A stretch of DNA of 44,450 bases from a virus: UHGV virus genome UHGV-0157893. One strand, written 5' to 3'. The translations under genes were made by a program, and so were the position numbers. This document shows, one piece after another, positions 2,695 to 36,179 of the stretch. Below the pieces are notes generated by a model. It was given only the letters and a program-made list of their open reading frames with translations, was not told where the DNA came from and ran no database searches. Within the stretch, counting starts at the first letter, position 1, and each line of letters opens with the position of its first letter.

Positions 2695-2703
2695 AAACAA
2701 TGC

Positions 2704-2737
2704 ATAAAAAAACGGGGCTTATGCCCCGTTTTTTTAT
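2704..2737. terminator. Bidirectional rho-independent terminator
   Basis: acggggc-ttat-gccccgt hairpin flanked by an A-run (2706-2711) and a T-run (2730-2736); ends both the plus-strand moron and gene J. Confidence 0.7.
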
Positions 2738-5700
2738 GCTGTCGTTGATGTTCTAAATGATCCGGTGCCTCTTGCTACTATCATTGTTGGAGAATACAAC
2801 GCGGTACAATATGCGTATCCTTCAGATGATGATGTTTGAGGACAATATATTTTCCCGATAATATCTGATGCTTTTAAACCAGAAAAAGCGCATTGCACTG
2901 TTAATGTGCATCCACCATAAGGCACGTAATATGAAATTGTTTTGTTTTTATCTCCGCAACTAAACGTTACGTTATAAGTGGATCTATATTCACCAGACAT
3001 TAATGAAATAGTCGCCATAAGCATAACTGATTTCGTCAATGCATTATCCGTGCTGTCTTTATATGTGATGGTTGCGCTATAACTTCCGTTATGCCCAAGC
3101 ACTCGATCTGGACCAACCCCCATGTTAGCAACGTCACCGACAAATGACTTTGCCTCTACTGTACCTTTAAACTTCCCGCTTGTGGCCTGAATCTCACCAG
3201 TGAATTTACCAGATGTTGCGTACACCGTACCGCGTACAGTGACGTTGTTGAACTCCGCATTGCCGTTTTTATTTAGCATCCAGCCAGCCGAACCAGCTTT
3301 ATAGTTGGTTGACTGAATTTGCTGCGCAATCTTCGCGGTAGTGATTGATGCGTCTCTGATCCACGCATCACGGATGTAGCAAGCACCGTTAGTAACATAG
3401 AACGGGGTCTGATAGGAGCCACCTGCCGCAGTCATAAGCACGAAACGGTCAACGAGGAAAATACACTGCGATTGAACGTTAGTCCCGCTACCAGTAAGGC
3501 CGAGCGACATTCCTGTAGCGTATTTCATACCGTTTTTATCAGTGGCAATCTTAATTGAATATGACGCATCAACGTTACCTTTGAAGTCAGTCAGTGCTTT
3601 TGATGTCGTTTCTATCGCCGTTGTGTTTCCGTTAATAGTTACTTTCAACTGGTCGATTCTGGTTGACAATGCCTCGTCTGCCGTTGCCATAGCCTGTGAC
3701 CATTCCGTGATGCTTGAGTTTACATCGTCGAAAGATGCCGAGATCTGGCCAAATTTTTCCGCGCTTGATGTTTCATGCGTAGAAAGTGCAGTTGACACTT
3801 CGGATACTTTCGAATTAATCGTACTGGTAAGCGATGAGTTAAGGCTGCTGATTGCGTCAGTGCGTGCATTCTTCTCATCTGCGATCGCTTTATCCATCCT
3901 GGTTACGTTGCTTGTCACCTTGCTATCGAGCGTGGAAATTGACGCATTAACCCCGCTAATAGCTTCTGCGCGTGCGCTCGCCTCATCTGCGATTGCTTTA
4001 TCAAGACGGGAAACGCTCGCGTCGGTTTTGCTTTCAAGACTACTGACGCTGGCGTTAACGTTGCTAATAGCTTCTGCGCGTGCGCTCGCCTCATCTGCGA
4101 TTGCTGTGTCTACCCTTGCTATTTCCGCTTTTGTTTTTGTTTGTCCTTTCCTGTATTTCGCCTCAATAACAGTGCTCATCTTGCTTTGCGCCATTGAGTT
4201 ATTAATAAGCGCCAGAGATGCGTTTTGCAGACTTGCTTTCGCCTGATCTATCTCGTCGCTGTTTTTATCAACCTCACTTTTAACGCCGCCAAGCGTCGCG
4301 CTGATACCTGATATCGCCTGAGCACGTGCGCTTGATTCATCAGCGATAGCTTGATCAAGACGGCTAACACTGGCATTTGTGTTATTTTCAAGCGTTGTTA
4401 AATCAGCTTTAACCACTGTTATTGCGTCGCTTCTTGCCTGCGTTTCATCTGATATTGCATTATCGAGGCGCTTAACGCTGGCGTCAGTTTTCTTGTCAAG
4501 TGTTGAGATACTTGCGTTCACGTCGCTGATAGCCTGAGTACGCGCACTTGTTTCGTCTGCAATTGCCTGATCAAGACGGTTTACGCTGGCGTCAGTTTTC
4601 TTGTCAAGATTGCTTATTGAGGCATTTACACCGTTAATAGCTTCAGCGCGGGCGCTGGCCTCGTCAGCTACTGCGCGTTGCACATTAGAGATCTGACCTT
4701 TAAGGTTTGTGTCCATCACATTCATTTCTGCCGTGATGGTTTCCAGTGATTCCGCTGTCGCTTTTTTCTCTTCAGCGATAACGTTGTCAATGCGGTCAAT
4801 TTCCGCTTTCGTCTCTGTCCTGCCTTTCTTGTACTGAGCGGTAAGAGTTACGCGAGTGTTAGTCTGTGCAAGCGAGTTATTAATAAGAGCAAGTGAGGCG
4901 TTTTGCAGACTTGCTTTTGCTTGCGCCAGTTCGCTGCCAACTTTTTCGCTAGACACCTCCAGCGAGTCGATTCTCGACTCATGCTGTCCAATATCATCGG
5001 CGTTTTCCTTAACTTTTTTATAAAGATCTTCCGTTTCTTTTTTGAGCGTATCAGTATCAGCTTTTATTGATCCTGTTTCTATGGTTAGGTTGTCAGTTTC
5101 AGTCCTTAAATCGTCAGTTATGTTGGTCAGATTATCAGTTGCAGCTTTGAGGTTGTCAGTAGCAGTTTTAAGGTCATTCGTAGCGCTTTCGATAAGATCA
5201 GTGCGGTCGCCTAGATCTTTAATGTCACCAACCATTTCTTTAAATTGTTTGGAATTCATTACGTCTTTGGTGACGTAATCGGTAATTTCATCAAAGTTTT
5301 CTGTTGGCTTACCTGACGCTTCCACAAAGTCAGACACACCAAAAGCGTTACGCGCGCGCACATAAACGTAATATGTGTGACCTGTATTCATGCCGCCAAA
5401 CGTCCACTGATGACCACGCCCGGTATATTGTGCTTTAGTGGTTATTGATGCCGGATCAGTGATCTGCGTTTCACCTGAGTAATAAAACTCGTAACTGGTA
5501 TCAGTGGTGAGCGTTGTTCTGCTGATCGGGTAAACTGTAGCCTGGAATACACCGGGAACCCAATTAACGCCAACTGGGGCCGCTGGTGCGCCAATAACCA
5601 GATCGACAATGCTTTCCGCACCCTTCATGCCCGTGTCATTTCTGCCACGAATGCCTAATGAGTAGTTGCCAGCATCAATGCCATAAAAATCATAACTGTA

Positions 5701-23669: not shown

Positions 23670-25148
23670 TTAAAATCCGCGCAGGCGCTTAGGTAACATG
23701 AGGCCCATTGCCTGCGGCTGGCTTAATTCAGTGATACCCCATACCATTGCGTCGAGGCGGTCAGGTGATTTTTTAGCGGTAGCTGGAACGTATTCCATCA
23801 TTTGATTTTCCAGCGTGTACAGGCTGCCTGTGTGGGCCACCCTTCCCTGTGCATACAGTGCCGATATTGGCTCGGCGCGGGCGAATTTACCCTTGCTTGC
23901 GTGCACCTTAACAATGCGGCCTTTGAATCCGGCGTTACGTAGCGTGGCCTCTGCCATTTCGCCGCCCTGGTTTGTTTCGATAACTATCGCGTCAGCTTCA
24001 TGGATGTTGTAGGCGTTCATTGATGCCTGCGCCCAGTCGTTAGGAGACATACGGCCTGAGTAGTCGCCATCAACAGAATACTGAGCATTTTTACCGCCAC
24101 CGTAAGCGGAACATGCAACGATCCCCGTTTCGTCCGATTCTTCCGATGATGTTGTAGCCGGGTCGATAGCTATTACCGTGCGGATCTTGTCCTGCGTTAT
24201 CTGCATCCGGTGCGCTGCGGTTATCATGGCTTCAGTCCACAATGCACCCTCTTCGTCGAATTTACGCGGGCGCTGCATGTACTGGGCCTCGAATGACCGC
24301 CTGTGTGCTTTCAGTCCAGCTTCATGAATGTCATTGTGCTTTTTAGGCCACAGCCATCCATCAGGCAGGTTGTGAGGAATGGGTATTGCGAACTCGTTTT
24401 CAGGGTACAAATCCCTGTAGTCAACGCTATTGTCGATCTTCACTGGCAGGTTAAGGTGATACCACTTCTCACCGCTTCCACCTCGTAACAGGTAGCCGGA
24501 CAAATCATCGTAGTGGATGCGCTGCATGATGACGATAACAGGCGTTGTTTGCACTGCCAGACGTGAAGCAAGTGTGTCGTTATAGTTTGTGTTTACCTGC
24601 TTTCTCACCACGTCAGAGTAAGCGTCAGCGGGTTTTAATGGGTCGTCGATGATTAACGCGCCGTTAAATCCCGGCTCCATATACCCAGCACGGAACCCAG
24701 TTACCTGGCCCAGCGATGACGTTGCATACACGCCGCCACCGTATTCAGTCCACCACATCGATTTCGAGTTGGCATCGTTGCGGATCTTCATGGGCCACAT
24801 TGCCTGATAGTCAGGCGTACAGATCATGTTTCTTACAGTCGAGGAATTGAGTAACGCCAGGTTGTTGGAATAGGAAACGTGAAGGAATCTTGTGCGGGGA
24901 TTTATTGCGAGGGACCGCGCCATCATGTTGATGGTAGCGATCATGGTTTTACCGTACCCTGGGGGAATGTTAATGATGAGGCGGGTTATCTCACCATTAA
25001 TAACGCGTTGTAGTGCATCGCGGATAGCTATGTGATGACCTGAGACAAACATCTTCGTACCGTTTGCTTGCTTGTAGAAATAGCGGTTGAAAAACAGGCC
25101 ATCGTTTTCACATTTGGACTGAATAACTCGTTCTTTGATTGTCAACAT
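23670..25148 (-). CDS. terL: Terminase large subunit
   Basis: ATG 25148 (track start is GTG 25154), GAGGTG RBS; Walker A-like PPGYGKT, Walker B-like LIIDDP, C-terminal nuclease-type acidic motifs. Confidence 0.85.
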   Translation of the reverse strand: MLTIKERVIQSKCENDGLFFNRYFYKQANGTKMFVSGHHIAIRDALQRVINGEITRLIINIPPGYGKTMIATINMMARSLAINPRTRFLHVSYSNNLALLNSSTVRNMICTPDYQAMWPMKIRNDANSKSMWWTEYGGGVYATSSLGQVTGFRAGYMEPGFNGALIIDDPLKPADAYSDVVRKQVNTNYNDTLASRLAVQTTPVIVIMQRIHYDDLSGYLLRGGSGEKWYHLNLPVKIDNSVDYRDLYPENEFAIPIPHNLPDGWLWPKKHNDIHEAGLKAHRRSFEAQYMQRPRKFDEEGALWTEAMITAAHRMQITQDKIRTVIAIDPATTSSEESDETGIVACSAYGGGKNAQYSVDGDYSGRMSPNDWAQASMNAYNIHEADAIVIETNQGGEMAEATLRNAGFKGRIVKVHASKGKFARAEPISALYAQGRVAHTGSLYTLENQMMEYVPATAKKSPDRLDAMVWGITELSQPQAMGLMLPKRLRGF

Positions 25149-25150
25149 AA

Positions 25151-25636
25151 TCACACCTCGTCTTCTACTTCCTGGACGATGCGGGCGATCTCTTCTTTCG
25201 TGACTTCAACCTGAACGGGCGCTTCTTCCTTGTTGCCGACGATCTCCTGTGTGACGCGTTCGCCGTATTTGCGCGGCTGAAGTTTTGCCAGTAGCCACTT
25301 GCGCGTTTCAATCATTAGTTGGTGGCGTCGCAACTGATCTTTATCTGCGTTCTCTGCTGCATCAGCCAGATCGATGATTTCATCAGCCAATACCTCGAAG
25401 CCGATCTCCTTCGCGCGCGCGTACATGATCGAGAATTCCGGTACATCCCTAAACCATTTCAGGATTGTGGAACGGGTAGGCATACCAGGCATTTTCGAAA
25501 TTTTATTAATACTCTGACCATCCGCCACCAGTTCACAGATTTCTAATGCTTTTTCTTCGGTATAACCATGCGGACGGCCCACCTTTTTAGCGGCTGGCTT
25601 TTTATCGTCAGCCTTTGCCTTTTTAGTGCGGGCCAT
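25151..25636 (-). CDS. terS: Terminase small subunit
   Basis: ATG 25636 with GAGGTG RBS; Lys-rich N-terminus then HTH-like KALEICELVADGQSINKISK; stop abuts terL start. Confidence 0.7.
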   Translation of the reverse strand: MARTKKAKADDKKPAAKKVGRPHGYTEEKALEICELVADGQSINKISKMPGMPTRSTILKWFRDVPEFSIMYARAKEIGFEVLADEIIDLADAAENADKDQLRRHQLMIETRKWLLAKLQPRKYGERVTQEIVGNKEEAPVQVEVTKEEIARIVQEVEDEV

Positions 25637-25647
25637 AATTTCACCTC

Positions 25648-25734
25648 TCAAAACCATTTGCACAGAATATATAAACACGCAATTAATGTTGCGCAGTATG
25701 TTAATACTTCCAACCAGTCGAATAGCTCTTTCAT
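25648..25734 (-). CDS. Tiny hydrophobic ORF 6 (28 aa, predicted single TM helix)
   Basis: ATG 25734 with AAGGG RBS; MKELFDWLEVLTYCATLIACLYILCKWF; stop TGA 11 nt before the terS RBS. Confidence 0.45.
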   Translation of the reverse strand: MKELFDWLEVLTYCATLIACLYILCKWF

Positions 25735-25744
25735 TGTTTACCCT

Positions 25745-25789
25745 TTATGCGAAGAAAACGATAACTACTAACAACGTGCATGTAGCCAT
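25745..25789 (-). CDS. Tiny hydrophobic ORF 5 (14 aa; weakest of the array)
   Basis: ATG 25789, weak RBS; MATCTLLVVIVFFA. Confidence 0.2.
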   Translation of the reverse strand: MATCTLLVVIVFFA

Positions 25790-25805
25790 GATTAAGAAAT
25801 CACTG

Positions 25806-25880
25806 TCAGGCATTGATAATAAACCCCACAATAACAACCGCCGCGATACATACGAATAATACAGCTTCGATAGTTTCCAT
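25806..25880 (-). CDS. Tiny hydrophobic ORF 4 (24 aa)
   Basis: ATG 25880 with AGGTGA RBS; METIEAVLFVCIAAVVIVGFIINA. Confidence 0.45.
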   Translation of the reverse strand: METIEAVLFVCIAAVVIVGFIINA

Positions 25881-25888
25881 ATATTCAC

Positions 25889-25957
25889 CTATTGAGTCAG
25901 CGCGGTCATGGTAAGAACAATCGCAACGATCAGGAAAAAGAAATCAAGCCATTTCAT
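25889..25957 (-). CDS. Tiny hydrophobic ORF 3 (22 aa)
   Basis: ATGA start/stop overlap with ORF 2; GGGAG RBS; MKWLDFFFLIVAIVLTMTALTQ. Confidence 0.45.
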   Translation of the reverse strand: MKWLDFFFLIVAIVLTMTALTQ

Positions 25958-26034
25958 TTTTTAAACTCCCGGTATACGTCAACGGCAATGACTACAACTA
26001 CAGCCACCAGCAATAGCATTTCGTATGCGTTCAT
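25954..26034 (-). CDS. Tiny hydrophobic ORF 2 (26 aa)
   Basis: ATG 26034 with GAAGGTG RBS; MNAYEMLLLVAVVVVIAVDVYREFKK. Confidence 0.45.
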   Translation of the reverse strand: MNAYEMLLLVAVVVVIAVDVYREFKK

Positions 26035-26044
26035 GTGAACACCT

Positions 26045-26119
26045 TCAGCTTTCAATGAATATCATGATCGCCAGCCATACAGCGACGCAGGCAGAAAGGG
26101 TAATGAGCGGGTCAATCAT
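26045..26119 (-). CDS. Tiny hydrophobic ORF 1 (24 aa)
   Basis: ATG 26119 with GAGG RBS inside the 3' end of the upstream gene; MIDPLITLSACVAVWLAIMIFIES. Confidence 0.45.
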   Translation of the reverse strand: MIDPLITLSACVAVWLAIMIFIES

Positions 26120-26121
26120 AA

Positions 26122-26706
26122 TTAGCCTCGTTTAAAGCTCATCACACGCGGCACATACGCATCTTTTGCTTTAGGCTTACGTTTGCCTTTCTTAGCTGGT
26201 TTTTTCTCTTCTTTCGGCTCCTCTGCCTGCTCTACTGCCTGCTCTGCTGCATCAGTAGCCTTCTCTGCCTGCTCTAATGCCTTCTCTACGACTTCAGCGG
26301 CCTGCATTGCTGCCACCTGTGCTTCATTTGATTCCGCCAGGATGGGGAAGAATGCGTCAAAGATACGGCCTACCATGTAAGCGTAAGTCTCGTTTGCCGG
26401 ATGGCTGGGATCAGTGGTCGCTACGACGCCCACATCACTTAGAACGTGAAATGTCGTGTGCGCCGCTTCATGTACCAGCGTTCCTAACTCATTGTCGAAT
26501 ACTGCGATCACGTAGAAGTTACCGCCTTTCTCGCCAGTGCAAGTAAGCGTCAATCCTCCTGCCAGTTCGAAATCAGGTTCGATCGGAATTCCTGCCTTTT
26601 CGCAAAATTCATAAAACATCTCGCGGGTCGGGCAAAAGAAAACGGTTGTATGCTCAAAGAGCGGGATCTTGAAGTGAGGCAATTTTAAGCCTTTACCCTT
26701 AGCCAT
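26122..26706 (-). CDS. Hypothetical protein with HExxH metallopeptidase-like motif and Lys-rich tail
   Basis: ATG 26706 with AGGAG RBS; 194 aa; LVHEAAHTTFHV motif; C-terminus EEPKEEKKPAKKGKRKPKAK. Confidence 0.55.
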   Translation of the reverse strand: MAKGKGLKLPHFKIPLFEHTTVFFCPTREMFYEFCEKAGIPIEPDFELAGGLTLTCTGEKGGNFYVIAVFDNELGTLVHEAAHTTFHVLSDVGVVATTDPSHPANETYAYMVGRIFDAFFPILAESNEAQVAAMQAAEVVEKALEQAEKATDAAEQAVEQAEEPKEEKKPAKKGKRKPKAKDAYVPRVMSFKRG

Positions 26707-26967
26707 CAGAATAATCTCCTGTCTGGTTTGCTTTTACTTCCTGTTTATCCATTGCCAGGAATGATATAAAACACTGAAAACGGCGCTTCGTGAGTACCGT
26801 TTCCGGGATTTTATAAAGTGGGCGCTTTCTTCTACCCAGGTAGCGCCGACCTGTTAATGGGACTGTTGATCCGGTATTACGTGTTTTTGACTATTCCGCC
26901 GTCGCTCGCGGGAAGGATTGGCCCGGTTATGGCTGGCTGGCGGAAACGGCGACACGTCCACGCGCTG

Positions 26968-27450
26968 TTATTCTTTGCGTAAGCACTGCGTTTTGATGTA
27001 GTCCTGTAGGCCAGTGATCTGTGCGTCTTTCGTTTTTAGTTGTTCTCTGAGGGATAGATAAGCTGATTCAGCTGATTTAGAGAGTTGGCAGGTGGCTCCA
27101 TCAATGCGGCTGGCGGTTCCTGCGGAGTCGGACACTCGCACGGGTATTGCGTTGACGCGCAGCCTGATAGTGCCGTTATCAATGCCAGTGCGCAGATCGG
27201 CAATGTCAGATCTGATAGCTTTAATCTCATCGTGATACCTCTTATCAAGTTTTGACAGTTCGGCGTTTCGCTCCTTCATCTGCTGAATAGTGTTACTTGC
27301 TGTTTTCAGTGCGCCTTGCGTGGTCGTTAATTCTTCCTGTAACCTTGTCGCCTCACTCTGGTAATGGCATGTTACGGCTGTAAGGCTGGCAATGATGCAA
27401 ACAACAGCGGCGATAATTAACGCCTTCACCTTGTCCACGTTTCCCCCCAT
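26968..27450 (-). CDS. Rz: Spanin, inner membrane subunit (Rz)
   Basis: Track start TTG 27456; ATG 27450; N-terminal TM helix then coiled coil; follows endolysin. Confidence 0.75.
27036..27230 (-). CDS. Rz1: Spanin, outer membrane lipoprotein subunit (Rz1), embedded in Rz
   Basis: ATG 27230 with AAGAGGT RBS; lipobox LSGC; Pro-rich mature region; fully inside Rz in another frame. Confidence 0.7.
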   Translation of the reverse strand: MRLKLSDLTLPICALALITALSGCASTQYPCECPTPQEPPAALMEPPANSLNQLNQLIYPSENN

Positions 27451-27917
27451 TCGCAAACGGCATATTCAACATCACGGCGGTTTACCAGGCCTTGCCACTT
27501 CTTACCGCCAGCGTATACCCAGCGTTTAAGCTGTGCGCACGCTTCTGATTTCTTGCCGTCATTGAGTAGCTTTAATAAGGTTGATGTTTTGAAGTTGGTT
27601 GCGCCTACGTTATAGGCGAATGAATAAAGTGCTGCGCGGGTAAAATCTGATACTTCGACTTTGATATATGGGTCAATCGCTTTTGCGGTCTTGTGTAGAT
27701 CTTTATTTAACAAAGCATCGCATTCTGATTGCGTGTAAGTCTTGCCCAACATGATGTCTTTTCCGGTGTGACCATAGCAAACAGTCCATACACCAACAAC
27801 ATCACGATAAGGATCGTATTCCACGCCCTCTAATGGCTTAATCATCACCGCCGCAATAGCGATCGCCCCACCAGCCGCCGCCGCAACAATTTTGTTTTTC
27901 AGCGATTGGCTAATCAT
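27426..27917 (-). CDS. SAR endolysin (T4-lysozyme-like, GH24 type)
   Basis: ATG 27917 overlapping holin stop; N-terminal Ala/Gly-rich weakly hydrophobic helix (SAR-like); catalytic-region [23 protein letters not shown]. Confidence 0.8.
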
Positions 27918-27918
27918 G

Positions 27919-28119
27919 TTACTTATTCCCCATTCGCGCGTCGTGTTCCTCTTGCGCTCGCTTGTTCTCCTGTGATTTAAAGTAATAATTAACGGCAAAT
28001 GTGCCAATGGTTGATAGGATACCCACGAAGACGGCAACGTCATTTATGGTTATCGCACCGAAAAAAGCGGTTACGGTCCCAGTAACATAAGCGCACGCCG
28101 CCCGTATTCTGTCGAACAT
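27919..28119 (-). CDS. Holin (pinholin-like, two TM segments)
   Basis: ATG 28119 with GGAGGT RBS; 66 aa; two hydrophobic helices and charged C-terminus; directly upstream of SAR endolysin. Confidence 0.7.
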
Positions 28120-28140
28120 AGATTTACCTCCAACAAAGCA

Positions 28141-28164
28141 AAAACCCGGCACGGGGCCGGGTAG
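28141..28164 (-). terminator. Intrinsic terminator just upstream of holin (tR'-like position)
   Basis: Minus strand reads CCCGGC-cccgt-GCCGGG then TTTTTGCTTTG, 20 nt before the holin RBS. Confidence 0.6.
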
Positions 28165-28226
28165 TTACAGTTTCGCATTGTTAGGTAATATTTTAATCTG
28201 TTTGTTTTCGACCAACAAATACGGCT

Positions 28227-28454
28227 TTAACGATAAGGGCCAAGCAAACGAACAAGCCATTCTTTGTATTTGGCGGCGACGTGTTTAGGTGCAAAATATC
28301 CTTGCACTTCCTTACCGCCTCGCCACTCCCTTCTAAATTCGCACTCGTTTTGATACTCCTTTCCGCTTTTACTATCAAGCCAGCAAGCAGGCGAGTAACC
28401 TTTTTCACTTCCGAACCGATGCCATATTAATGACAGCAAAATCATTTCCTCCAT
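28227..28454 (-). CDS. Hypothetical protein
   Basis: ATG 28454; 75 aa; an alternative overlapping frame (28193..28408) cannot be excluded. Confidence 0.35.
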   Translation of the reverse strand: MEEMILLSLIWHRFGSEKGYSPACWLDSKSGKEYQNECEFRREWRGGKEVQGYFAPKHVAAKYKEWLVRLLGPYR

Positions 28455-28475
28455 ACCGCCCCCACAAATACGGCT

Positions 28476-28652
28476 TTACGCAGTTCTGTATATCAGTCCG
28501 TTATCAAGCAATGTTTGCATGTGTTCGCGATCCATGTCGCTTAATTCCCAATAAGGAACATCTTCATTCCTTATCATCACCTCTTCGCCTCTTACCAAAT
28601 AGGCGATGTCAAATACCTTATGCAAATAGATGCCATCTTCGATCTCGTTCAT
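28476..28652 (-). CDS. Hypothetical small protein (58 aa), paralog of upstream gene
   Basis: ATGA overlap with upstream stop; MNEIEDGIY... shares the IEDGIY start with 28649..28831. Confidence 0.45.
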   Translation of the reverse strand: MNEIEDGIYLHKVFDIAYLVRGEEVMIRNEDVPYWELSDMDREHMQTLLDNGLIYRTA

Positions 28653-28831
28653 AGGTCGCTAACCTTTACCAGTTCACCAGCATCAAGAAATATTTTAATT
28701 GTTTCTCGCGTCGTCTCAATGATTGGCTCTACCCACTCACCACAGCCAACGCGGATGCGAATATCATCACCTTCTACGCGGTAAAACAACCCGTCAACTA
28801 CTGTTGCCGCGTATATGCCATCTTCAATCAT
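28649..28831 (-). CDS. Hypothetical small protein (60 aa)
   Basis: ATG 28831 with AAGGAG RBS; MIEDGIYAATVVDGLFYRVEGDD... Confidence 0.5.
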   Translation of the reverse strand: MIEDGIYAATVVDGLFYRVEGDDIRIRVGCGEWVEPIIETTRETIKIFLDAGELVKVSDL

Positions 28832-29046
28832 TTCTTGCGCTCCTTAATGGCTCGCATGATGTTAATACGCATAGCGTCACTGAATGCGTATATCGTAATG
28901 AAAGGCCAGAAGACTAGCTCGAACCAAATAATGCCGTCACTATCAACAGCTTTCTGAAAAGCGCCCATTAAAATGACGCCAGCCAGGTAAATTATAACTA
29001 CCGCAATAATAAGACATTCAATCATAATCATCGTCCTCGTCTTCAT
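28828..29046 (-). CDS. Small membrane protein
   Basis: Track start is TTG 29067; in-frame ATGs at 29064, 29046, 29031; one long hydrophobic helix IMIECLIIAVVIIYLAGVILMGAF. Confidence 0.45.
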   Translation of the reverse strand: MKTRTMIMIECLIIAVVIIYLAGVILMGAFQKAVDSDGIIWFELVFWPFITIYAFSDAMRINIMRAIKERKK

Positions 29047-29278
29047 GTTCAGCCATGAACTCATCAACTACGCGGTAAGTCACTGGCGGGATATATTCAA
29101 AGTCATCCGTATCAAGATCAAGCGTCCTGCTGTCGCCGTCGTCGTCCAGCGTATTCATACCTAATTCACCGAAAGGGCCGTACCCAATGTGGCCCAGGTA
29201 TTCGCAACCAACCGTAAAGCCAGGATATTCACCTTTACACCGGATTTTGTAAGGTTTATTTGATGCGCTCAATTTCAA
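29018..29278 (-). CDS. Hypothetical highly acidic protein (start uncertain)
   Basis: Track start is TTG; only in-frame ATG is at 29158; C-terminus DDDGDSRTLDLDTDDFEYIPPVTYRVVDEFMAEHEDEDDDYD. Confidence 0.35.
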   Translation of the reverse strand: MKLSASNKPYKIRCKGEYPGFTVGCEYLGHIGYGPFGELGMNTLDDDGDSRTLDLDTDDFEYIPPVTYRVVDEFMAEHEDEDDDYD

Positions 29279-29579
29279 CCCCTCCGTTTTCTCCTTCAGT
29301 CATTTTGTATTCCGCCACCAGTTCAGCCCCAATCAATTCCACTTCATCACCAGGGAATGGATTAAGTTTCAATGATACTAAGATAAAAAATTTAACGTGA
29401 TCTGCATTATCAAGATCTTTCACGTCAAAAGGAGGTTCAGATACGTGGTAGCATTTGACGCCAGCTTCGTCATCAGTGGCTACACGGAAACATACGCCAG
29501 GTTGTCCGGCGTACTGTCCCAATCTTTCTTCGTTCGGTAAAGTACCACGAAAAACTTTAACACTGGCAAATTTAGACAT
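29256..29579 (-). CDS. Hypothetical protein
   Basis: ATG 29579 with AAGGAG RBS; 107 aa. Confidence 0.5.
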   Translation of the reverse strand: MSKFASVKVFRGTLPNEERLGQYAGQPGVCFRVATDDEAGVKCYHVSEPPFDVKDLDNADHVKFFILVSLKLNPFPGDEVELIGAELVAEYKMTEGENGGVEIERIK

Positions 29580-29602
29580 TTGTTATTCTCCTTCGTAAGA
29601 AA

Positions 29603-29932
29603 TTAAAATTCAGCACCAGGTAAGCTACGCGCTTTATTCACCGCATCGTGTTTTAACGATAAACCAGCGCGATAATTCATAATACCCATATTGCCAACAG
29701 GTATTTCATTATTTTCTGCCTTTATTCTGAACAACTGGTTTTTAGTGAAGATCCTGTCACCATCAGTGATGTATAACCAGTCTCCACGCTTACCAACTAC
29801 AACATGAGATCGGCCTAAACTGTCTTTAAATTCATAATTGCAGAAAACATCACCTTTAGGCACTTCAACAAAACAGCACGCTATGAACTTATCACTTTTC
29901 ATAATTGCAACCTTCTGGTTTGATTTGGCCAT
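29603..29932 (-). CDS. Hypothetical protein
   Basis: Track start TTG 29995; ATG at 29932 with AGGGG RBS (alternative ATG 29902). Confidence 0.45.
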   Translation of the reverse strand: MAKSNQKVAIMKSDKFIACCFVEVPKGDVFCNYEFKDSLGRSHVVVGKRGDWLYITDGDRIFTKNQLFRIKAENNEIPVGNMGIMNYRAGLSLKHDAVNKARSLPGAEF

Positions 29933-30182
29933 CCGGCCCCTAGTTTTATTCGTCTTTGTCTCCTTTAAATCCCAAACACTCCGCGTATTCGTCAATGCTT
30001 AATGCTTCTTCACCTGGTGCCAGCAATTCAAAGTAGCGGGCGTATAGTTCAAAAACCCATGCCGGATATTTAGCGTTAGCGTTCATCTTCTTACCTCCCA
30101 TTCGTCTTTCCGTGGCTTATATGTAACAAAATGGCACTGCCTAAACAATGCCATTTCGTAAACTTTGTGTGGTAGATCACAT

Positions 30183-30440
30183 TTATTCCGGTTTACTACC
30201 TTCGCGAGCATGAAGTACAGCGATCTCACGGAAATCATGCACGATGCGATAAATATACAAGCCAGAGGCGTTATTGATATGGCTTGCATAAGCAAAATAT
30301 AACTTACCATCATCGCCAGTTATAGCCATTGCACCATCACCACCAGGCGCACCGTAAATCTGAACCCCGCAATAAACCTTACCGTCTTTGAATTTGTCGA
30401 GATCGCGAGTCTGAATTACATTAAAATATAAATGTTCCAT
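30183..30440 (-). CDS. Hypothetical protein
   Basis: ATG 30440 with AAGGGG RBS; start overlaps upstream stop (TGATG). Confidence 0.5.
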   Translation of the reverse strand: MEHLYFNVIQTRDLDKFKDGKVYCGVQIYGAPGGDGAMAITGDDGKLYFAYASHINNASGLYIYRIVHDFREIAVLHAREGSKPE

Positions 30441-30691
30441 CAGAAAACCCCTTTATAGTCTACCGTGTATTTTGCCACCAATTTCCATTCACAATAGTTT
30501 TCCATGTCGCGCGGCTGCCATCCTTTCATGCCTACAGCGCTCCGCGCAGCGTGACGGCGGCAATTGTCGTTAAGGTCTACAACACACCACGGCTGAAGGA
30601 CAAACATGTACTGCGCCTCGTTAACCAGGATCGCCATCTGCTTTCCCGTTGCCTTATCTTTCGCCCGGAAATAACTTACCCTGATTTTCAT
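30440..30691 (-). CDS. Hypothetical protein
   Basis: ATG 30691 with GAGGT RBS; 83 aa. Confidence 0.5.
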   Translation of the reverse strand: MKIRVSYFRAKDKATGKQMAILVNEAQYMFVLQPWCVVDLNDNCRRHAARSAVGMKGWQPRDMENYCEWKLVAKYTVDYKGVF

Positions 30692-30902
30692 TTTGATATA
30701 CCTCTATCAACATTTCTTCTTCCAGGTTAGCCGGACGTTTACGAAATATCCCGGCAAAAACCAGATCGTCGAGTAGGTCTTTACGCTTAAATAACCACTC
30801 TTTCATTATCACCCCGTCGTCACTGCGATACACGACGCCGTTTTTAAGAAAATAAAAAGTGTTTATGTCTGTATGGAGGTATAGATCTTCGTAAACGTCC
30901 AT
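30654..30902 (-). CDS. Hypothetical protein
   Basis: ATG 30902, 4 nt after upstream stop (MDVYEDLYLHTD...). Confidence 0.45.
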   Translation of the reverse strand: MDVYEDLYLHTDINTFYFLKNGVVYRSDDGVIMKEWLFKRKDLLDDLVFAGIFRKRPANLEEEMLIEVYQNENQGKLFPGER

Positions 30903-30906
30903 GATG

Positions 30907-31134
30907 TTAACCCTCGACCACTTCCAGCCCGCGCCCCTTGTCGCCAACGAAGTCTCCCAGGCTGAACGTATACGACCATGCAGGATTAATGTAATGATCA
31001 TCAGCGCCAGCGGCAATTAGGTCAGCACCGTTAATCATGCAAGTGACATTATCACTATGAACGACGTCAACCACCTTACCAACAACCTGTTTCAATGACG
31101 GATAACCGTGATCGTGCAAGAATTTTACTTTCAT
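30907..31134 (-). CDS. Hypothetical protein
   Basis: ATG 31134 with GGGGGA RBS; TAATG overlap with upstream gene. Confidence 0.5.
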   Translation of the reverse strand: MKVKFLHDHGYPSLKQVVGKVVDVVHSDNVTCMINGADLIAAGADDHYINPAWSYTFSLGDFVGDKGRGLEVVEG

Positions 31135-31364
31135 TAATCTGTCCCCCAGCGCTCAATACTGATTAAAAAGTCCCGGATAGCGTGGCGCTCGTCGCGTGTT
31201 GGTTTGCGCTTCCGGTAAATTTTAAAATCGAACCATGCCTTTTCTTGCTCAAAATCCAGATCGTAAGCAAGCGCCTCAATGTAACCGCATTCGTGATACT
31301 GGTACGCCACGCCAGCACGAACAAAAAAGCGGGTTTTATCCCGCTTGTGTTCATAGATACGCAT
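31134..31364 (-). CDS. Hypothetical protein
   Basis: ATG 31364 with GGGGTGA RBS (longer alternative from 31409). Confidence 0.4.
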   Translation of the reverse strand: MRIYEHKRDKTRFFVRAGVAYQYHECGYIEALAYDLDFEQEKAWFDFKIYRKRKPTRDERHAIRDFLISIERWGTD

Positions 31365-31374
31365 ATTCACCCCA

Positions 31375-31605
31375 TTACGCAGTTGTGTAGCTGTCCACCA
31401 GCTTTTCATCTTTCATTCTGGCAAGCTGTGCGATGTTCATCGTGTAGCCGCCATCTGAGAAAAGCCATTCCGCAGCCTTGCGACGAAAAGCAATATCATC
31501 ATGGTTACGTGTCCATGTAGCGATCACAACGCGTTTCCCGTTAGTGGCGAACATAGACAATTCATTATCAACCACGTCAATAGCCTGCCAGATTTTTAGC
31601 TCCAT
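31375..31605 (-). CDS. Hypothetical protein
   Basis: ATG 31605 with GGGGA RBS; 76 aa. Confidence 0.5.
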   Translation of the reverse strand: MELKIWQAIDVVDNELSMFATNGKRVVIATWTRNHDDIAFRRKAAEWLFSDGGYTMNIAQLARMKDEKLVDSYTTA

Positions 31606-31961
31606 GATTTATCCCCGTAGATCTTGAATAGTTCACACGCTTCCTGATTTTCAAATATATTCATATGCAGGTCACGCAGGCGGCGCATTGTGCGGAATCG
31701 CGGCCTGAACTCCTGGCTACGTTTAATGTATTTGCCGCCAATTGAATAAATATGCCCGTATGAGTACCATCTATTACCTACCCATATTTCATATTCTTTG
31801 CCTTCGTAATTAAATTTTATCGTTAGCTTGCCAACCTCAACTATTAACCCTTTATCAATGATGTCATTAAGCATTTCGTCCCATTCTTTGAGGAATGGTT
31901 GTTGATAAAAACCAAAAAGAGTATTTACAGCGTGGCAAAGGTAATCAATGATTATTTGCAT
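31596..31961 (-). CDS. Hypothetical protein
   Basis: Track start GTG 31976; ATG 31961 immediately after upstream stop. Confidence 0.45.
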   Translation of the reverse strand: MQIIIDYLCHAVNTLFGFYQQPFLKEWDEMLNDIIDKGLIVEVGKLTIKFNYEGKEYEIWVGNRWYSYGHIYSIGGKYIKRSQEFRPRFRTMRRLRDLHMNIFENQEACELFKIYGDKSWS

Positions 31962-31962
31962 A

Positions 31963-32184
31963 TTAATTACACTCACTCATTATGTAGTAAACGTTATCGT
32001 AAGCTATATTATCAGCATCTTCCTGTGTTATATATCTGGCATCAAAAAAGAAATCAGCATCGTGCCATATATGAAAAATATATCTCGCAAATTGGCGGCG
32101 GTGGCGCTTGCTGCGTGGTAGTATGTCAAATTCCATTAACGCTTTATCATATGCTCTTATCATGCGCTTACGGTTACTTTTCAT
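31963..32184 (-). CDS. Hypothetical basic protein, tandem paralog A
   Basis: ATG 32184 with GGTGA RBS; MKSNRKRMIRAYDKAL...DNVYYIM; about 45% identical to the adjacent upstream gene. Confidence 0.55.
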   Translation of the reverse strand: MKSNRKRMIRAYDKALMEFDILPRSKRHRRQFARYIFHIWHDADFFFDARYITQEDADNIAYDNVYYIMSECN

Positions 32185-32188
32185 ATTG

Positions 32189-32404
32189 TCACCACATCAT
32201 ATAATAAACGTTATCGTTAGCCACTTCGTCGGCTTGTTCTTGTGTTAATAGCGGTGCGCTTTCCATAAAAGCATCAGAATAATGCCACTCATAAACAAGC
32301 ATACGCGCCCATTTGCGGCGCTGGCGTTTATTGTGTCGCAGATCATCAAAAGCCTTTAATGCTTTGTCGTACGCCCTTACAAGGCGCTTGCGGTTACTTT
32401 TCAT
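32189..32404 (-). CDS. Hypothetical basic protein, tandem paralog B
   Basis: ATG 32404 with GAGGTG RBS; MKSNRKRLVRAYDKAL...DNVYYMMW. Confidence 0.55.
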   Translation of the reverse strand: MKSNRKRLVRAYDKALKAFDDLRHNKRQRRKWARMLVYEWHYSDAFMESAPLLTQEQADEVANDNVYYMMW

Positions 32405-32705
32405 TTTCACCTCTCAACATCCAATTTCTGTCACATTTAATTGCGAATACCTTAACAGGATCAGGGCCGAATAATGGATGAGTGATAGTTTTTACTTCGT
32501 ACCCAAAATAAGGAAGGTTAATAATCCTGTGTTTTTCGTGGTTGGCAGGGTATCCCCATTTAATAATCAGGCGTTCATATTCCCGCCCTTCCAGACGTTT
32601 ACGCCAATAGTCATTATAAAGCCGGTATTCCTCCACCTTCTTTCCAGTCCATATGGCGTGGAAATATTCCCCTTTCAGATTCAAATGCAGGTCTTTACTT
32701 GCCAT
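32394..32705 (-). CDS. Putative ASCH-like domain protein
   Basis: ATG 32705; LHLNLKGEYFHAIWTGKKVEEYR resembles ASCH/DUF3850 N-terminal motif (from memory, not searched). Confidence 0.4.
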   Translation of the reverse strand: MASKDLHLNLKGEYFHAIWTGKKVEEYRLYNDYWRKRLEGREYERLIIKWGYPANHEKHRIINLPYFGYEVKTITHPLFGPDPVKVFAIKCDRNWMLRGENEK

Positions 32706-32964
32706 CGCTATGATCCTGTAAACAGTCGTTATAGCCTTCAATGTATCCGGTTAATCCGGTGTTACTCACTGACCATTCAGCCGAACGGCGCTTGATGGCT
32801 TCGTCCATCGTGATTTCGCCACCCGGCCCGCCAGGCTCAATATATTTTTTTAAATCCCTTGCTATCCACGCCCTCAATTGTTGTGTATCACGGCACAACC
32901 GCGCGGATAATGTCAGGTCATTAACCAGCTTTGCAAATAGATGTTCTTTTAGTTTAGGCTTCAT
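32695..32964 (-). CDS. Hypothetical protein
   Basis: ATG 32964/32967 with GGGGTGA RBS. Confidence 0.45.
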   Translation of the reverse strand: MKPKLKEHLFAKLVNDLTLSARLCRDTQQLRAWIARDLKKYIEPGGPGGEITMDEAIKRRSAEWSVSNTGLTGYIEGYNDCLQDHSDGK

Positions 32965-33154
32965 CATCGTCACCCCGCTTGTAAATTTTGACAGGCTTAA
33001 TAGGGATGGCTGGCAATTCGCCTTCATTTAACGCGCTTGCCATACCCAATATTAAACGCGCTTCCGCGCCAGTGACTTTCTTACACCATGCGCCGCCTGT
33101 TTTATCTTCAAATAAGATAACGGCAAACTGATCGTTTATTTCCAGCTTATCCAT
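32954..33154 (-). CDS. Hypothetical protein coupled to Q
   Basis: ATG 33154 with GGGGTGA RBS; TAATG overlap with Q stop. Confidence 0.5.
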   Translation of the reverse strand: MDKLEINDQFAVILFEDKTGGAWCKKVTGAEARLILGMASALNEGELPAIPIKPVKIYKRGDDDEA

Positions 33155-33876
33155 TATTCACCCCGTGTCACTCGTTTGATTTCACTTTCCGCGCGGCCCT
33201 CTTCTTTGAATAGCTCCGCTATGGCGTCTTCATAGAAAACCCGGTATTTTTTCCACCAGGTTGATCGGCTTACCGGAAAAACAAGCTGATTAACGGCCTG
33301 ACGCACAAGATCTACGGGGAAACGCGAGTACCCGCGCCCGCCGCAATGCTGGCACGTTTTGAACACTGGCATTTCCGCCGCTTCGCTGGCTGCTTTATCC
33401 GGTACTTCGCCACGGCCCTTGCATTGTTTACAATGATTGAGAACCTTCCCATGCCCCTTGCATTTTTTGCAAAGGTGTTTTTCTCCGTATTCGTCAAACG
33501 TAAATTTATATCCGCCGCACTCCATACAAGTTTTTTCCGTCGCGGCACTCTGGCAATAATCCCGAAACGCGAAAACGGCAACAAGAATAATGAGATCATT
33601 GCGTTTAGCCTCGTCCAGTTCCATAACGTATTCATAATCTTTTGCCATAGCCTTTAAACGCTCTATAAGCAAAACTACGGCCTTATGTTTTTCGGCTTGT
33701 GATAGTTCCATCTTTCCCAGAAAAGCGCTATAACCAAGCTCTACGCGCGATTGCGCCATACCAGCGGCAGTTAGCGCATCCGTAGTATTAAGCGCATCCG
33801 GGGACGTGCCCCGGCTTTCATCTGACAAACGCGGTGATTTTGGGAAGTGGAATTTAAGAATAGATTCCAAATTCAT
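33154..33876 (-). CDS. Q: Late gene antiterminator Q (phage 82 / phi80 type)
   Basis: ATG 33876 with GGGGGT RBS; N-terminus MNLESILKFHFPKSPRLSDESRG matches the remembered phage 82 Q start; multiple CxxC zinc-finger pairs. Confidence 0.8.
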   Translation of the reverse strand: MNLESILKFHFPKSPRLSDESRGTSPDALNTTDALTAAGMAQSRVELGYSAFLGKMELSQAEKHKAVVLLIERLKAMAKDYEYVMELDEAKRNDLIILVAVFAFRDYCQSAATEKTCMECGGYKFTFDEYGEKHLCKKCKGHGKVLNHCKQCKGRGEVPDKAASEAAEMPVFKTCQHCGGRGYSRFPVDLVRQAVNQLVFPVSRSTWWKKYRVFYEDAIAELFKEEGRAESEIKRVTRGE

Positions 33877-34058
33877 TATTTACCCCCGTAACGTGCAACC
33901 AGTCTTTTGCGATCAGATATTGATTGCACTAGCTTTCTTTCAAACTCTTTCAGTGCAAGTAATTCTCGCATGTGAAAAGCCTGAATTTGTCGGACTGTGG
34001 CTAAATCACGCTCGTCGCGCTGAATATCTATTTGCAGATCTTTAATTTCGTTTTTCAT
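33876..34058 (-). CDS. Hypothetical small coiled-coil protein
   Basis: ATG 34058 with GGTGG RBS (track start GTG 34070); between rusA and Q. Confidence 0.45.
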   Translation of the reverse strand: MKNEIKDLQIDIQRDERDLATVRQIQAFHMRELLALKEFERKLVQSISDRKRLVARYGGK

Positions 34059-34060
34059 TG

Positions 34061-34462
34061 TTACCACCACATATTAGTCAAGTATTCGTTAATATCCGGT
34101 AACAGGTCGCCGCGTTCGCGTACCTTGATAAACAATCGCCCTCTTTTTACCTTCCGGCAGCGGACAAATTTCATTGCGTCAACCTGGCTATCATCAGCCC
34201 AAAAACCGGAATAAGTTATAGCGTCAAATAATGCCTTCCCTACATTGTCAATATCGCGGCGTCTGTTATCTGGCGGTGCAATATACACCGTTATTGATAG
34301 CCTACACTTAAGATTAATTTTCAGATTAAGCAGTTTTATAATGTCTTTTACCTGCTCCCTGTATTCCTTACCTTCCTTGCTTATATAGTGGAAACCGCGC
34401 GAATGCCGGTAATATTTATTGTTCGATGGCGGGTAAGGCAGGCTAAAAGTATATTCATTCAT
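34061..34462 (-). CDS. rusA: Holliday junction resolvase RusA
   Basis: ATG 34462 (ATGA overlap with ninG stop); 133 aa; PPSNNKYY and DIDNVGKALFDA are RusA-type motifs. Confidence 0.8.
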   Translation of the reverse strand: MNEYTFSLPYPPSNNKYYRHSRGFHYISKEGKEYREQVKDIIKLLNLKINLKCRLSITVYIAPPDNRRRDIDNVGKALFDAITYSGFWADDSQVDAMKFVRCRKVKRGRLFIKVRERGDLLPDINEYLTNMWW

Positions 34463-35064
34463 GCTGCCTTTCTCCTTAAGGCGTCCAATTTAGCCTGATA
34501 GACTTTTATGATCTCCTTGCATTCTTCGATCGCCCATTTATGAGTTTCGTTGTTGTTCTCCAGCGCTTCCACCCTGGCAAGGCCAATTTTCCTAATCAGC
34601 GCTGGGCGATATGCTTCTATGTTGCCATCTAATGTCTGGTTGCAGTGCCTGCATTGTTTGTGGCAATTATCCTCGTTAAAACGAAGGTGCCCGGCGGCGG
34701 CAACCGTTCTATAGTGTCCGGCATCTGCTCCGCATTGTTCGTAATAGTAAGTCCCGCATGATATGCACGGCTGACCCGCGTCACGTTCGCGGATATAGGC
34801 ATTAAATACCGCTTGTGCCTGCTTCAACCAATAACTACGCGGATTTAACTGCTTCCGCTTCCGGTTGCGTTCTTCCCGCTGGCTATCACGGCGTTTCTTC
34901 CGTTCCATAGCCTTCATAGCCTTCTCACGGTCGCGGCATAGCTGATCAAACTTCAGCTCTTCCAGACACTCATCACTGCACCACGTTTGATTGTGATATT
35001 TAGGCTCAAAAAAAACGCCGCAGCACTTGCAACGGCGTCTTATTGGTTTTTTAGGGTTCTGCAT
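34459..35064 (-). CDS. ninG: NinG / Rap-like recombination protein
   Basis: ATG 35064 with GGGGTGG RBS; aligns by eye with lambda NinG (RRRCK, PRSYWLKQAQ, PCISCGT, DAGHYRT, RFNE.N.HKQC). Confidence 0.8.
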   Translation of the reverse strand: MQNPKKPIRRRCKCCGVFFEPKYHNQTWCSDECLEELKFDQLCRDREKAMKAMERKKRRDSQREERNRKRKQLNPRSYWLKQAQAVFNAYIRERDAGQPCISCGTYYYEQCGADAGHYRTVAAAGHLRFNEDNCHKQCRHCNQTLDGNIEAYRPALIRKIGLARVEALENNNETHKWAIEECKEIIKVYQAKLDALRRKAA

Positions 35065-35078
35065 AAAAACCACCCCTA

Positions 35079-35255
35079 TTATTTTTGATTCTCTGTTTCG
35101 TTCAGCCTTTCGGTGTGTCCGGCCCTTAGCCAATGATCTAAGCATTCGTTGCACTCGTTACAGCCTCCTTTCTTTGTGCTGCATACATTGCACATTGCAC
35201 GCATGACGCTTTCTCGTTCATAGTCGTCATGCCATTGGTAATTATCAAAAGACAT
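35079..35255 (-). CDS. ninF: NinF-like small Cys-rich protein
   Basis: ATG 35255 with AGGGAGGGAG RBS; 58 aa with CxxC...CxxC pattern; upstream of ninG. Confidence 0.5.
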   Translation of the reverse strand: MSFDNYQWHDDYERESVMRAMCNVCSTKKGGCNECNECLDHWLRAGHTERLNETENQK

Positions 35256-35376
35256 AATGCTCCCTCCCTTTAAGGTGATTTCTACGCATTTCAGCGCTGC
35301 CGGATTTTTAAAGAGCATTTCGTTTGCTTGAAGTATACAAAATGGATACACGTAAACAAGACGAAAAGCGCCATTA

Positions 35377-35392
35377 TGTGACCTGTATCACA
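35377..35392. promoter_or_regulatory. Perfect TGTGA-N6-TCACA palindrome (CRP-consensus-like) in 160-bp intergenic region
   Basis: tgtgacctgtatcaca at 35377-35392, flanked by inverted copies of the GTATACAAAATGG / CCATTTTGTAAAC motif. Confidence 0.4.
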
Positions 35393-35414
35393 CAATGACG
35401 CCATTTTGTAAACT

Positions 35415-36179
35415 TCAGTCCGGTAAAACGCGGTTGAGCGTAGTACGATTGATGGCCCGGTCGTTAGCCAGGAATACAGCACGGGCAAAGCCACGCGGCG
35501 TTAGTGAGCGGATCATCTTAGTGCGTTTCGACTTTCCTCCTAACTTAGCGTGCTGCTTACTGTCTTCCCATTCATCAGGCATTGGCACAGGCAGGAATAG
35601 CGGCTGATTAAATCCATTCCCGCACCAGATACAAGTTTTCTTCGTGTATGCGTCGCGGTCGGCGATGTATTCCGGGAAGGCAGGATGTTTGTCATCTTCA
35701 GGCAGGTAGCCACCGTAAGCGCACGGGTTGAAGATAAAATCCGGCTTACGCCATAACGTTGACAGTGCGCCAACCGGATTTTCCACCATCCACGGGACGT
35801 GATACATGTCAGCCAGCGTTTCTACCAGTTTTGCGTTATATGCCGCCTTCACCTGGAAGTCAGGATCTTTTTCACGCTTGCTGGCAAACCAACGAGCGCC
35901 GGACACGGCTAGATGGTCGCATGGCGGGAAGGCCAGAATAATGTCAGGATCTGGATAAACAGACAAATCAGGGGAGAACATCACCAGGAAATGGCTGTCA
36001 ATCCATACGTTAACGTATTCAATATTCGGATGAATGATTTTTACGCCTTCATAGTCGCCGTGGTTAGCGCCGTCATAGTTGAAGCAATAACACTTATAGC
36101 CAGCGTCAGCCCAATCTTTAACGGCGTACCCGCTGCCGTCGTACAGCGACCACACCACCCAATTTTTAAGCCCACTCAT
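35415..36179 (-). CDS. Putative DNA (cytosine-5) methyltransferase-like protein
   Basis: ATG 36179 with GAGGG RBS; SLYDGSGYA (motif I-like), FPPCDHLAVSGARW (PC motif IV-like), MVENPVGAL (ENV motif VI-like); short for a C5-MTase, so tentative. Confidence 0.4.
   Translation of the reverse strand: MSGLKNWVVWSLYDGSGYAVKDWADAGYKCYCFNYDGANHGDYEGVKIIHPNIEYVNVWIDSHFLVMFSPDLSVYPDPDIILAFPPCDHLAVSGARWFASKREKDPDFQVKAAYNAKLVETLADMYHVPWMVENPVGALSTLWRKPDFIFNPCAYGGYLPEDDKHPAFPEYIADRDAYTKKTCIWCGNGFNQPLFLPVPMPDEWEDSKQHAKLGGKSKRTKMIRSLTPRGFARAVFLANDRAINRTTLNRVLPD

Follow-up and report, generated by a model that had tools for sequence, protein, structure and literature searches.

The stretch of DNA analysed here, referred to as the window, is the 44,450-nt virus genome UHGV-0157893. 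It is that of an mEp021-like (mEpimmI) temperate coliphage, and the region matches the phages mEp010, MagusPhagus, mEp044, mEp554, mEp021, mEp515 and mEp013 with 89–97% identity. Members of this group are reported to be as common as lambdoid phages in human gut samples (PMC11893012). A non-coding gap of 107 nt on the minus strand (28226–28120) separates a 75-aa ORF (28454–28227) from the ATG of the holin gene (28119), and all genes around the gap are on the minus strand as well. The holin and endolysin genes are followed by spanin, terminase and morphogenesis genes, in the gene order of mEp021. Upstream of the gap lie about 19 small genes and, before these, the gene for a Q antiterminator. The features, in the order in which the minus strand is read, are:

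33154–33876, minus strand: Q antiterminator gene, 240 aa, lambda-Q family (Pfam PF03589, E = 1.6e-28)
28227–33154, minus strand: about 19 small genes of unknown function from Q to the gap, most of which match PHROG families of unknown function; putative members of the early operon
28213–28218, minus strand: -35-like hexamer TTGTTG, 3/6 consensus positions, weak and not conserved
28196–28207, minus strand: conserved spacer AAACAAACAGAT, -24 to -13, putative Q-binding element
28190–28195, minus strand: -10 hexamer TAAAAT of the proposed late promoter PR', 5/6 consensus positions, invariant in relatives
28177–28182, minus strand: AACAAT, -10-like, predicted +1 to +6, proposed sigma70-dependent pause element, invariant
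28168–28169, minus strand: T-G step, predicted +14/+15, candidate pause position, invariant
28140–28162, minus strand: intrinsic terminator, proposed tR', predicted +21 to +43, with a 7-bp stem, a 5-nt loop and a T-run
27919–28131, minus strand: RBS GGAGG (28131–28127) and holin gene (ATG at 28119), putative first late gene (Pfam Phage_holin_2_3, E = 4.1e-15)
27426–27917, minus strand: endolysin gene (Pfam Phage_lysozyme, E = 3.8e-45)

Elements within the gap

Read along the minus strand, the gap consists of TTGTTG (28218–28213), gtcgaAAACAAACAGAT, TAAAAT (28195–28190), attacct, AACAAT (28182–28177), gcgaaacTGtaact, ACCCGGC-cccgt-GCCGGGT (28162–28144), TTTTGCTTTGTT, GGAGG (28131–28127), taaatct and the ATG. 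The hairpin ACCCGGC-CCCGT-GCCGGGT, which is followed by TTTTGCTTTG, has the makings of an intrinsic terminator: there are seven pairs in the stem, six of them G-C, a loop of 5 nt, and TTTTT downstream. A preliminary description of this DNA had placed a hairpin and U-tract at 28141–28164 on the minus strand, 20 nt before the holin RBS. These are present at 28162–28140, so that the coordinates were right within a few bases, and the distance from the end of the stem to the RBS is 12 nt. The hairpin alone folds with an energy of -12.5 kcal/mol and ranks second among the terminator-like matches of a consensus scan of 24000–36000, where such matches are common overall (20 found versus 12.6 +/- 3.8 expected).

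The same hairpin is annotated as a terminator in the GenBank records of relatives, where it is TERM_5 of mEp021, T9 of mEp010, T8 of mEp044 and T10 of mEp013. In mEp021 and mEp010 (GenBank MH706966 and PP180001) it occupies the same place before holin, with about one loop base different, and these two records annotate the terminator only, with no promoter, pause element or Q site. The terminators t1, t2 and t5 of mEp021 are listed as experimentally demonstrated (PMC11893012). As GenBank numbers TERM_1 to TERM_5 in genome order, t5 is probably TERM_5, that is, the holin-proximal hairpin. An N-type nut site (boxA/boxB) is not found at the hairpin, since its loop is CCCGU and not the adenine-rich loop of a boxB. 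The published mEp nut sites, nutL, nutR1 and nutR2 near gp15, gp17 and gp32 (PMC11893012), are all far upstream of the holin-proximal site.

A transcript starting at 28182 would carry the hairpin at +21 to +39 and the end of the T-run at +43, giving a predicted leader of about 45 nt. The slightly longer 51-nt leader (28182–28132) folds with -20 kcal/mol (z = -4.07), and none of 200 shuffles folds equally well. AACAA and GCGAAA at its 5' end can pair with the T-rich tail that leads up to the holin RBS, which results in an extended stem around the terminator. The conservation of AACAA and GCGAAA, described below, might thus reflect RNA structure and not sigma binding, and pairing alone might account for part of it. 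By eye, a seemingly similar complementarity of leader 5' end and tail is present in locus L052 of a clade whose Q is 49% identical. A search against Rfam returned nothing above cutoff; the rnk leader appeared as a sub-threshold chance match (24.6 bits versus a cutoff of 55).

Upstream of the hairpin, TTGTTG-17-TAAAAT with its -10 at 28190–28195 is exactly as first described. It fits 8/12 consensus positions and, for this reason, is omitted by a standard consensus scan. The candidate promoter lacks an extended -10 (TG) motif, nor is an A/T-rich element evident upstream of it. In relatives, the -35 position is occupied by TTGTGG or TTGTAG in one upstream variant and by TCGCGC in another (about a third of relatives), while the 49%-identical-Q clade has AAGCGC. 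Because the -35 is weak, is not conserved and comes without a TG motif or an evident A/T-rich element, the strength of the promoter is doubtful, and this weak, non-conserved -35 is the main doubt on reading the gap as a late cassette. In the -10 hexamer TAAAAT, the second base is A and the sixth is T, and TATAAT is at the equivalent place in the 49%-identical-Q clade.

An 18-nt direct repeat (TAAAGCCGTATTTGTKGG, minus strand, 94% identical) at 28212–28229 and 28461–28478 flanks the 75-aa ORF (28454–28227), which is found in 11/50 relatives only. This ORF resembles a gene cassette whose insertion point was a short linker that includes the -35-like hexamer, and such an insertion may explain the variability of the -35.

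The most telling feature of the gap was overlooked in the preliminary description. This is AACAAT, which begins 7 nt after the -10, where lambda has AACGAT 6 nt after its -10; the likeness, with A at +2 and T at +6, is one of sequence match only. In lambda, AACGAT is a sigma70-dependent pause element, and Q loads onto the polymerase that is paused at +16/+17 (PMC9388147, PMC9191641). The published pause consensus is T-N-Y-G (PMC9191641), and only the Y-G part of it is present at 28226–28120. Directly 5' of AACAAT, a -35-like element (compare TTGACT in lambda) is matched weakly by ATTACC or TTACCT and was discounted as evidence.

A conserved block, AAACAAAYRGAT, which is unique in the window and unlike the spacer of lambda, precedes the pause element and is by its position a candidate Q-binding element. 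The spacer AAACAAACAGAT, likewise unique in the window, has 3 variable positions among 33 distinct sequences, despite differing upstream genes. Lambda Q binds between the -35 and the -10. The QBE is listed as a separate element in the legend of Fig. 1B of the lambda work, the text of which gives no position for it (PMC9388147). The composite of a good -10, 6–7 nt, a -10-like hexamer and a terminator 8–30 nt further on, a pattern defined post hoc, occurs once on both strands of the 44-kb window, at the 28226–28120 site, as opposed to a mean of 0.05 over 100 dinucleotide shuffles.

Conservation among relatives and recurrence in diverged Q lineages

The comparison set comprised 45 IMG/VR loci, five phage records and contigs of more distant Q homologues. 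In the 50 close relatives, whose Q proteins are 84–100% identical, between 2004 and 6802 nt separate the holin ATG from the Q stop, and the cassette always adjoins the holin gene. The arrangement AAACAAAYRGAT-TAAAAT-(6–7 nt)-AACAAT-GCGAAA, followed by the hairpin and GGAGG, is kept before holin with at least five different upstream genes, and it is also kept in two loci in which holin is only 54% identical. The conserved block is present in 18/5426 complete E. coli genomes, with one copy in each; the strains FAH (NZ_CP116035) and O157:H7 LSU61 (NZ_CP038336) are among them.

Among the 33 distinct sequences from 45 relatives, 19/93 non-coding positions are variable versus 51% of holin third-codon positions, counts that are not independent because most of these relatives are closely related (Q 84–100% identical). 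There are zero variable positions in TAAAAT, AACAAT, GCGAAA, the T-G step, the CCCGGC/GCCGGG stem core, the T-run and the RBS. Variation is found instead at four of the five loop bases, in the 7-nt stretch between the -10 and AACAAT, at +13, at +18 to +20 and at a few spacer positions. The outermost A of the stem (+21) also varies, from A to G, with retention of a G-U pair. As the stem is without compensatory change among the relatives, its support as a terminator comes from conservation rather than covariation.

The order of -10, 6–7 nt, AAYRAT, G, a T-G or C-G step and a terminator recurs in six deeply diverged Q lineages. The lineages that share it at Q identities of about 40% are those of Citrobacter, Serratia, Xenorhabdus and two metagenomic lineages, and since their Q proteins are about 40% identical to one another, they are largely independent witnesses. 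In the five other Q lineages, the equivalents of the pause element are AATAAT, AATGAT and AACGAT. Every lineage compared has the Y-G core between +14 and +17, either as T-G or as C-G. Across lineages, a strong -10 pairs with a poor -35 and vice versa, as would be expected of real promoters, and spacer sequences are common to the more similar Qs.

The 49%-identical-Q clade (L052–L055) has the same layout as the window, in that small genes amounting to 3 kb separate Q from holin. Its sequence differs and reads TATAAT-tccctc-AATAAT-ggcaaagaTGtatttat, followed by another terminator. More distant Q homologues have classical lambdoid layouts; these are from Citrobacter (40% identical), Serratia (32%), Xenorhabdus (33%) and a metagenome (34%). 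Here, a good -35, 16–17 nt, a -10, 6 nt, AATGAT or AACGAT, and GG follow 59–75 nt after the Q stop. In particular, the predicted cassettes of the Citrobacter (L058), Serratia (L060) and Xenorhabdus (L062) prophages match the window in element order, and differ from it in lying 59–75 nt after the Q stop and in having a good -35 (TTTACA, TTTACT and TTGACA) with a weaker -10.

The terminator starts 14 nt past AACAAT in the window and 17–37 nt past AAYRAT in the four non-mEp lineages. The terminators of the three prophage cassettes are promoter-proximal, with starts 18–37 nt after AAYGAT, so that short leaders appear to be a common trait of this Q family. Very short leaders, with a terminator 14–37 nt past the pause element, would set a limit on how early Q loads.

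The Q gene, the genes after it and other candidate sites

The Q of the window aligns end to end with lambda Q (PDB 7UBM, E = 1.1e-37), through residues 1–114 and 148–238. From its stop to AACAAT there are 4971 nt and about 19 genes, and this distance is 1940–6494 nt in relatives. The intervening small genes are real coding genes, because variation in them is concentrated at third codon positions and because they match PHROG families. Gene content between Q and holin varies among relatives, except in a core at about 32000–30500. Two tandem paralogous pairs of small genes occur in this interval, phrog_8758 twice and phrog_15318 twice (32410–31963 and 28831–28476, minus strand).

The preliminary description had argued that there is no room for PR' right after Q, as the Q stop overlaps the start of the next gene. 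The overlap is real: the TAA stop shares one base with the next ATG (TAATG, 33156–33152). The argument drawn from it is weak alone because promoters can lie inside genes, and a look-alike exists 18 nt after the Q stop (33136). This is GTGACA-16-TAAGCT-7-AACGAT (33160–33131, minus strand), which was rejected since mEp021, mEp044 and at least eight other loci lack it and since it varies at synonymous positions. It is at a place like that of lambda PR' but inside the next gene, and could be either a relic of a Q-adjacent cassette or a chance match.

The intergenic region 29996–30182 had been offered as an alternative location of the Q site. It is present in only 16–38/50 relatives and has no qut-like order, and it was set aside as an essential Q site. 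An intergenic hairpin on the minus strand at 30163–30119 (ATGGCATTG-tttagg-CAGTGCCAT, then TTTGTT; -14.6 kcal/mol) is T8 in mEp010 and is found in some relatives only.

In the core common to all relatives, CTGGCA-16-GATAAT at 31591–31564 has a layout like that of lambda 6S, with a hairpin about 210 nt downstream (31346–31327). It was rejected as PR', since in many relatives its -10 ends in C and not T, and since variation in the region follows the codons. The terminator-like hairpin at 31346–31327 is itself real. It is on the minus strand inside the gene 31363–31134, at about codons 6–13, and reads AAGCGGG-ataaaa-CCCGCTT, TTTTTGT (-10.7 kcal/mol). It is almost invariant in 52 loci, versus 39% variable sites in its host gene, and shows a compensatory G-C to C-G change in one relative and a C-G to U-G change in another. 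It may be an early-operon terminator that is read through by Gp17-modified polymerase.

The best consensus promoter match, TTGAGA-16-TAAAAT at 28719–28692, lies inside a small gene of about 30–35 of the 50 relatives and so is not universal; it could be a minor promoter. Another match to the -10 and pause element, TAAAAT-7-AATAAT at 20538, is inside a 435-aa head-region gene and without a terminator, and was rejected. A scan of the opposite strand for a pause element plus terminator gave a site at about 2630–2760 (plus strand), far from the late region, where TTGACA is followed by AATGAT and AACAAT and then by a strong two-way hairpin (AAAAAACGGGGCTTATGCCCCGTTTTTTT). The holin-proximal site is the only qut-like site that is common to all relatives.

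A putative late cassette distant from its Q gene

We consider it probable, at about 0.72, that the gap 28226–28120 is a lambda-type PR'-qut-tR' late cassette that is about 19 small genes away from its Q gene. The mechanism is ordinary and the layout is unusual. As Q acts in trans, the distance between Q and its site presents no mechanistic problem. Host sigma70 polymerase would initiate at about 28182/28183, using the good -10 TAAAAT and a poor -35. Sigma would then re-bind the -10-like AACAAT (+1 to +6), thereby holding polymerase at about +14 to +17. Without Q, transcription would terminate at the hairpin and T-run (+43 to +47), which would leave a leader of about 45 nt and keep the lysis and virion genes silent. 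When enough Q has been made from the early operon, it would bind the conserved AAACAAACAGAT upstream of the -10 and load onto the paused polymerase. The Q-modified polymerase would pass the holin-proximal terminator and the strong later ones, resulting in transcription of the lysis, terminase and morphogenesis genes. Further strong terminators do lie within the late operon (for example 18516–18496), and because of these, processive antitermination would be needed. The approximately 19 small genes between Q and PR' would be early genes, co-transcribed with Q from a right operon that is antiterminated by the N-like Gp17.

A tR'-like hairpin with a late promoter just upstream, on which Q acts from about 5 kb away, had been suggested in the preliminary description. 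This suggestion is supported by the homology to lambda Q and by the placement of AACAAT. Further support comes from the recurrence of the cassette in diverged Q lineages and from its position next to holin, at any Q distance, in 50 relatives.

The gap could instead hold a terminator only, so that the hairpin ends or attenuates the early right operon, there is no promoter, and either Q is recruited elsewhere or read-through by Gp17-modified polymerase drives the late genes. The hairpin does close a long run of same-strand genes, and with its poor, non-conserved -35 the site is not called as a promoter by a standard scan. The mEp021 work, moreover, deals with early (Gp17) antitermination, a setting in which the hairpin may have been tested. 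A bare terminator would have no need, however, of a -10 and about 12 nt upstream of it that are nearly or fully conserved despite differing upstream genes. No other conserved qut-like site lies between Q and holin at which Q could be recruited, and the order of -10, AAYRAT and terminator is repeated in diverged Q lineages, so that a terminator without a promoter appears unlikely. An RNA element of the holin mRNA, acting through the extended stem on stability, processing or translation, would make the resemblance to a promoter and pause element coincidental. The 51-nt fold (-20 kcal/mol, z = -4.07), in which AACAA and GCGAAA pair with the T-rich tail by the RBS, is what one would look for in such an element, but its outer helices lack compensatory changes, the sole change giving a G-U pair. 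In addition, the conserved sequence continues for about 25 nt on the upstream side of the fold, reaching into the -10 and spacer, and Citrobacter, Serratia and Xenorhabdus keep AAYGAT at a fixed distance from the -10 and -35, 59–75 nt after Q. We regard this explanation as extremely improbable.

The site might also load Q without a promoter of its own. Here, early-operon polymerase that still carries sigma70 would pause at AACAAT, where Q would load and convert early into terminator-resistant late transcription. Early transcription enters the site directly, and such loading would fit the absence of the -35 from many relatives. Little sigma70 is retained at several kb from a promoter, which counts against it, and without local initiation there is no explanation for an invariant -10 that is correctly spaced from AACAAT and is a perfect TATAAT in the 49%-identical-Q clade. 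Phage 82 Q is reported to be able to engage sigma70-paused polymerase promoter-distally in vitro, and the same paper reports that, where the RNA is long, Q is antagonised by NusA at such promoter-distal sites (PMC4914094). Taken together, loading in the absence of a promoter is very improbable. A wider version would make the site mainly a promoter-independent Q-loading station, with one continuous transcript switching from early to late, and/or would make the constitutive leader of about 45 nt a StxS-like regulatory small RNA in lysogens; this, too, is distinctly unlikely.

The late-cassette reading, if correct, would supply a concrete and testable location for the late switch of the mEp021-like group. 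A 2025 paper on the group covers only early antitermination, in which the N-like Gp17 acts at three nut sites, and makes no mention of a late promoter or Q site (PMC11893012). What would be new are the putative assignments of promoter, pause element and Q site and the position of the cassette 2–7 kb from Q in this clade; the annotation of the hairpin was already known. The design of lambda would then be compatible with separation of Q and its target by 2–7 kb of exchangeable small genes. It would also follow that the approximately 19 accessory genes after Q are under early and not late control, which bears on guessing their roles. This is the reverse of Shiga-toxin phages, in which the accessory genes (stx) are downstream of PR' and under late control, whereas those of the window are upstream. 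In these phages, PR'-tR' makes the short RNA StxS, and the predicted leader of about 45 nt would likewise end in a hairpin and U-tail.

In the textbook layout, the late transcription unit is directly after the Q gene (PMC9388147). Neither the window nor its relatives have this Q-adjacent layout, which is a feature of layout and not of mechanism. The lambda late promoter reads TTGACT-17-TAAATT-tgactc-AACGAT-ggg and the window reads TTGTTG-17-TAAAAT-attacct-AACAAT-gcg. The two share a Q of the same family (PF03589) and a -10 followed, after 6–7 nt, by AAC(G/A)AT with A at +2 and T at +6. Each also has an A-rich spacer at the place of Q binding in lambda, upstream of the -10, together with an intrinsic terminator between the pause and holin, and lysis and morphogenesis genes downstream. 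They differ in that the cassette is 77 nt after the Q stop in lambda and 4971 nt after it in the window, and in that the leader of lambda is about 190 nt (6S RNA) whereas that of the window is predicted to be about 45 nt, with a stem from +21. The -35 is TTGACT in lambda and is weak and variable in the window, and the pause element is followed by GGG in the former and GCG in the latter.

The Q of the window differs as well, in having an extra 33-residue Cys-rich segment relative to lambda Q, inserted in the region that matches the lambda Q zinc-ribbon arm. This segment (residues 115–147; CxxC...CxxC) is present in all homologues of 240–278 aa and absent from lambda Q. In lambda Q, the arm in which it sits makes contact with DNA and with region 4 of sigma. 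The segment has a weak Pfam match to DnaJ CXXCXGXG.
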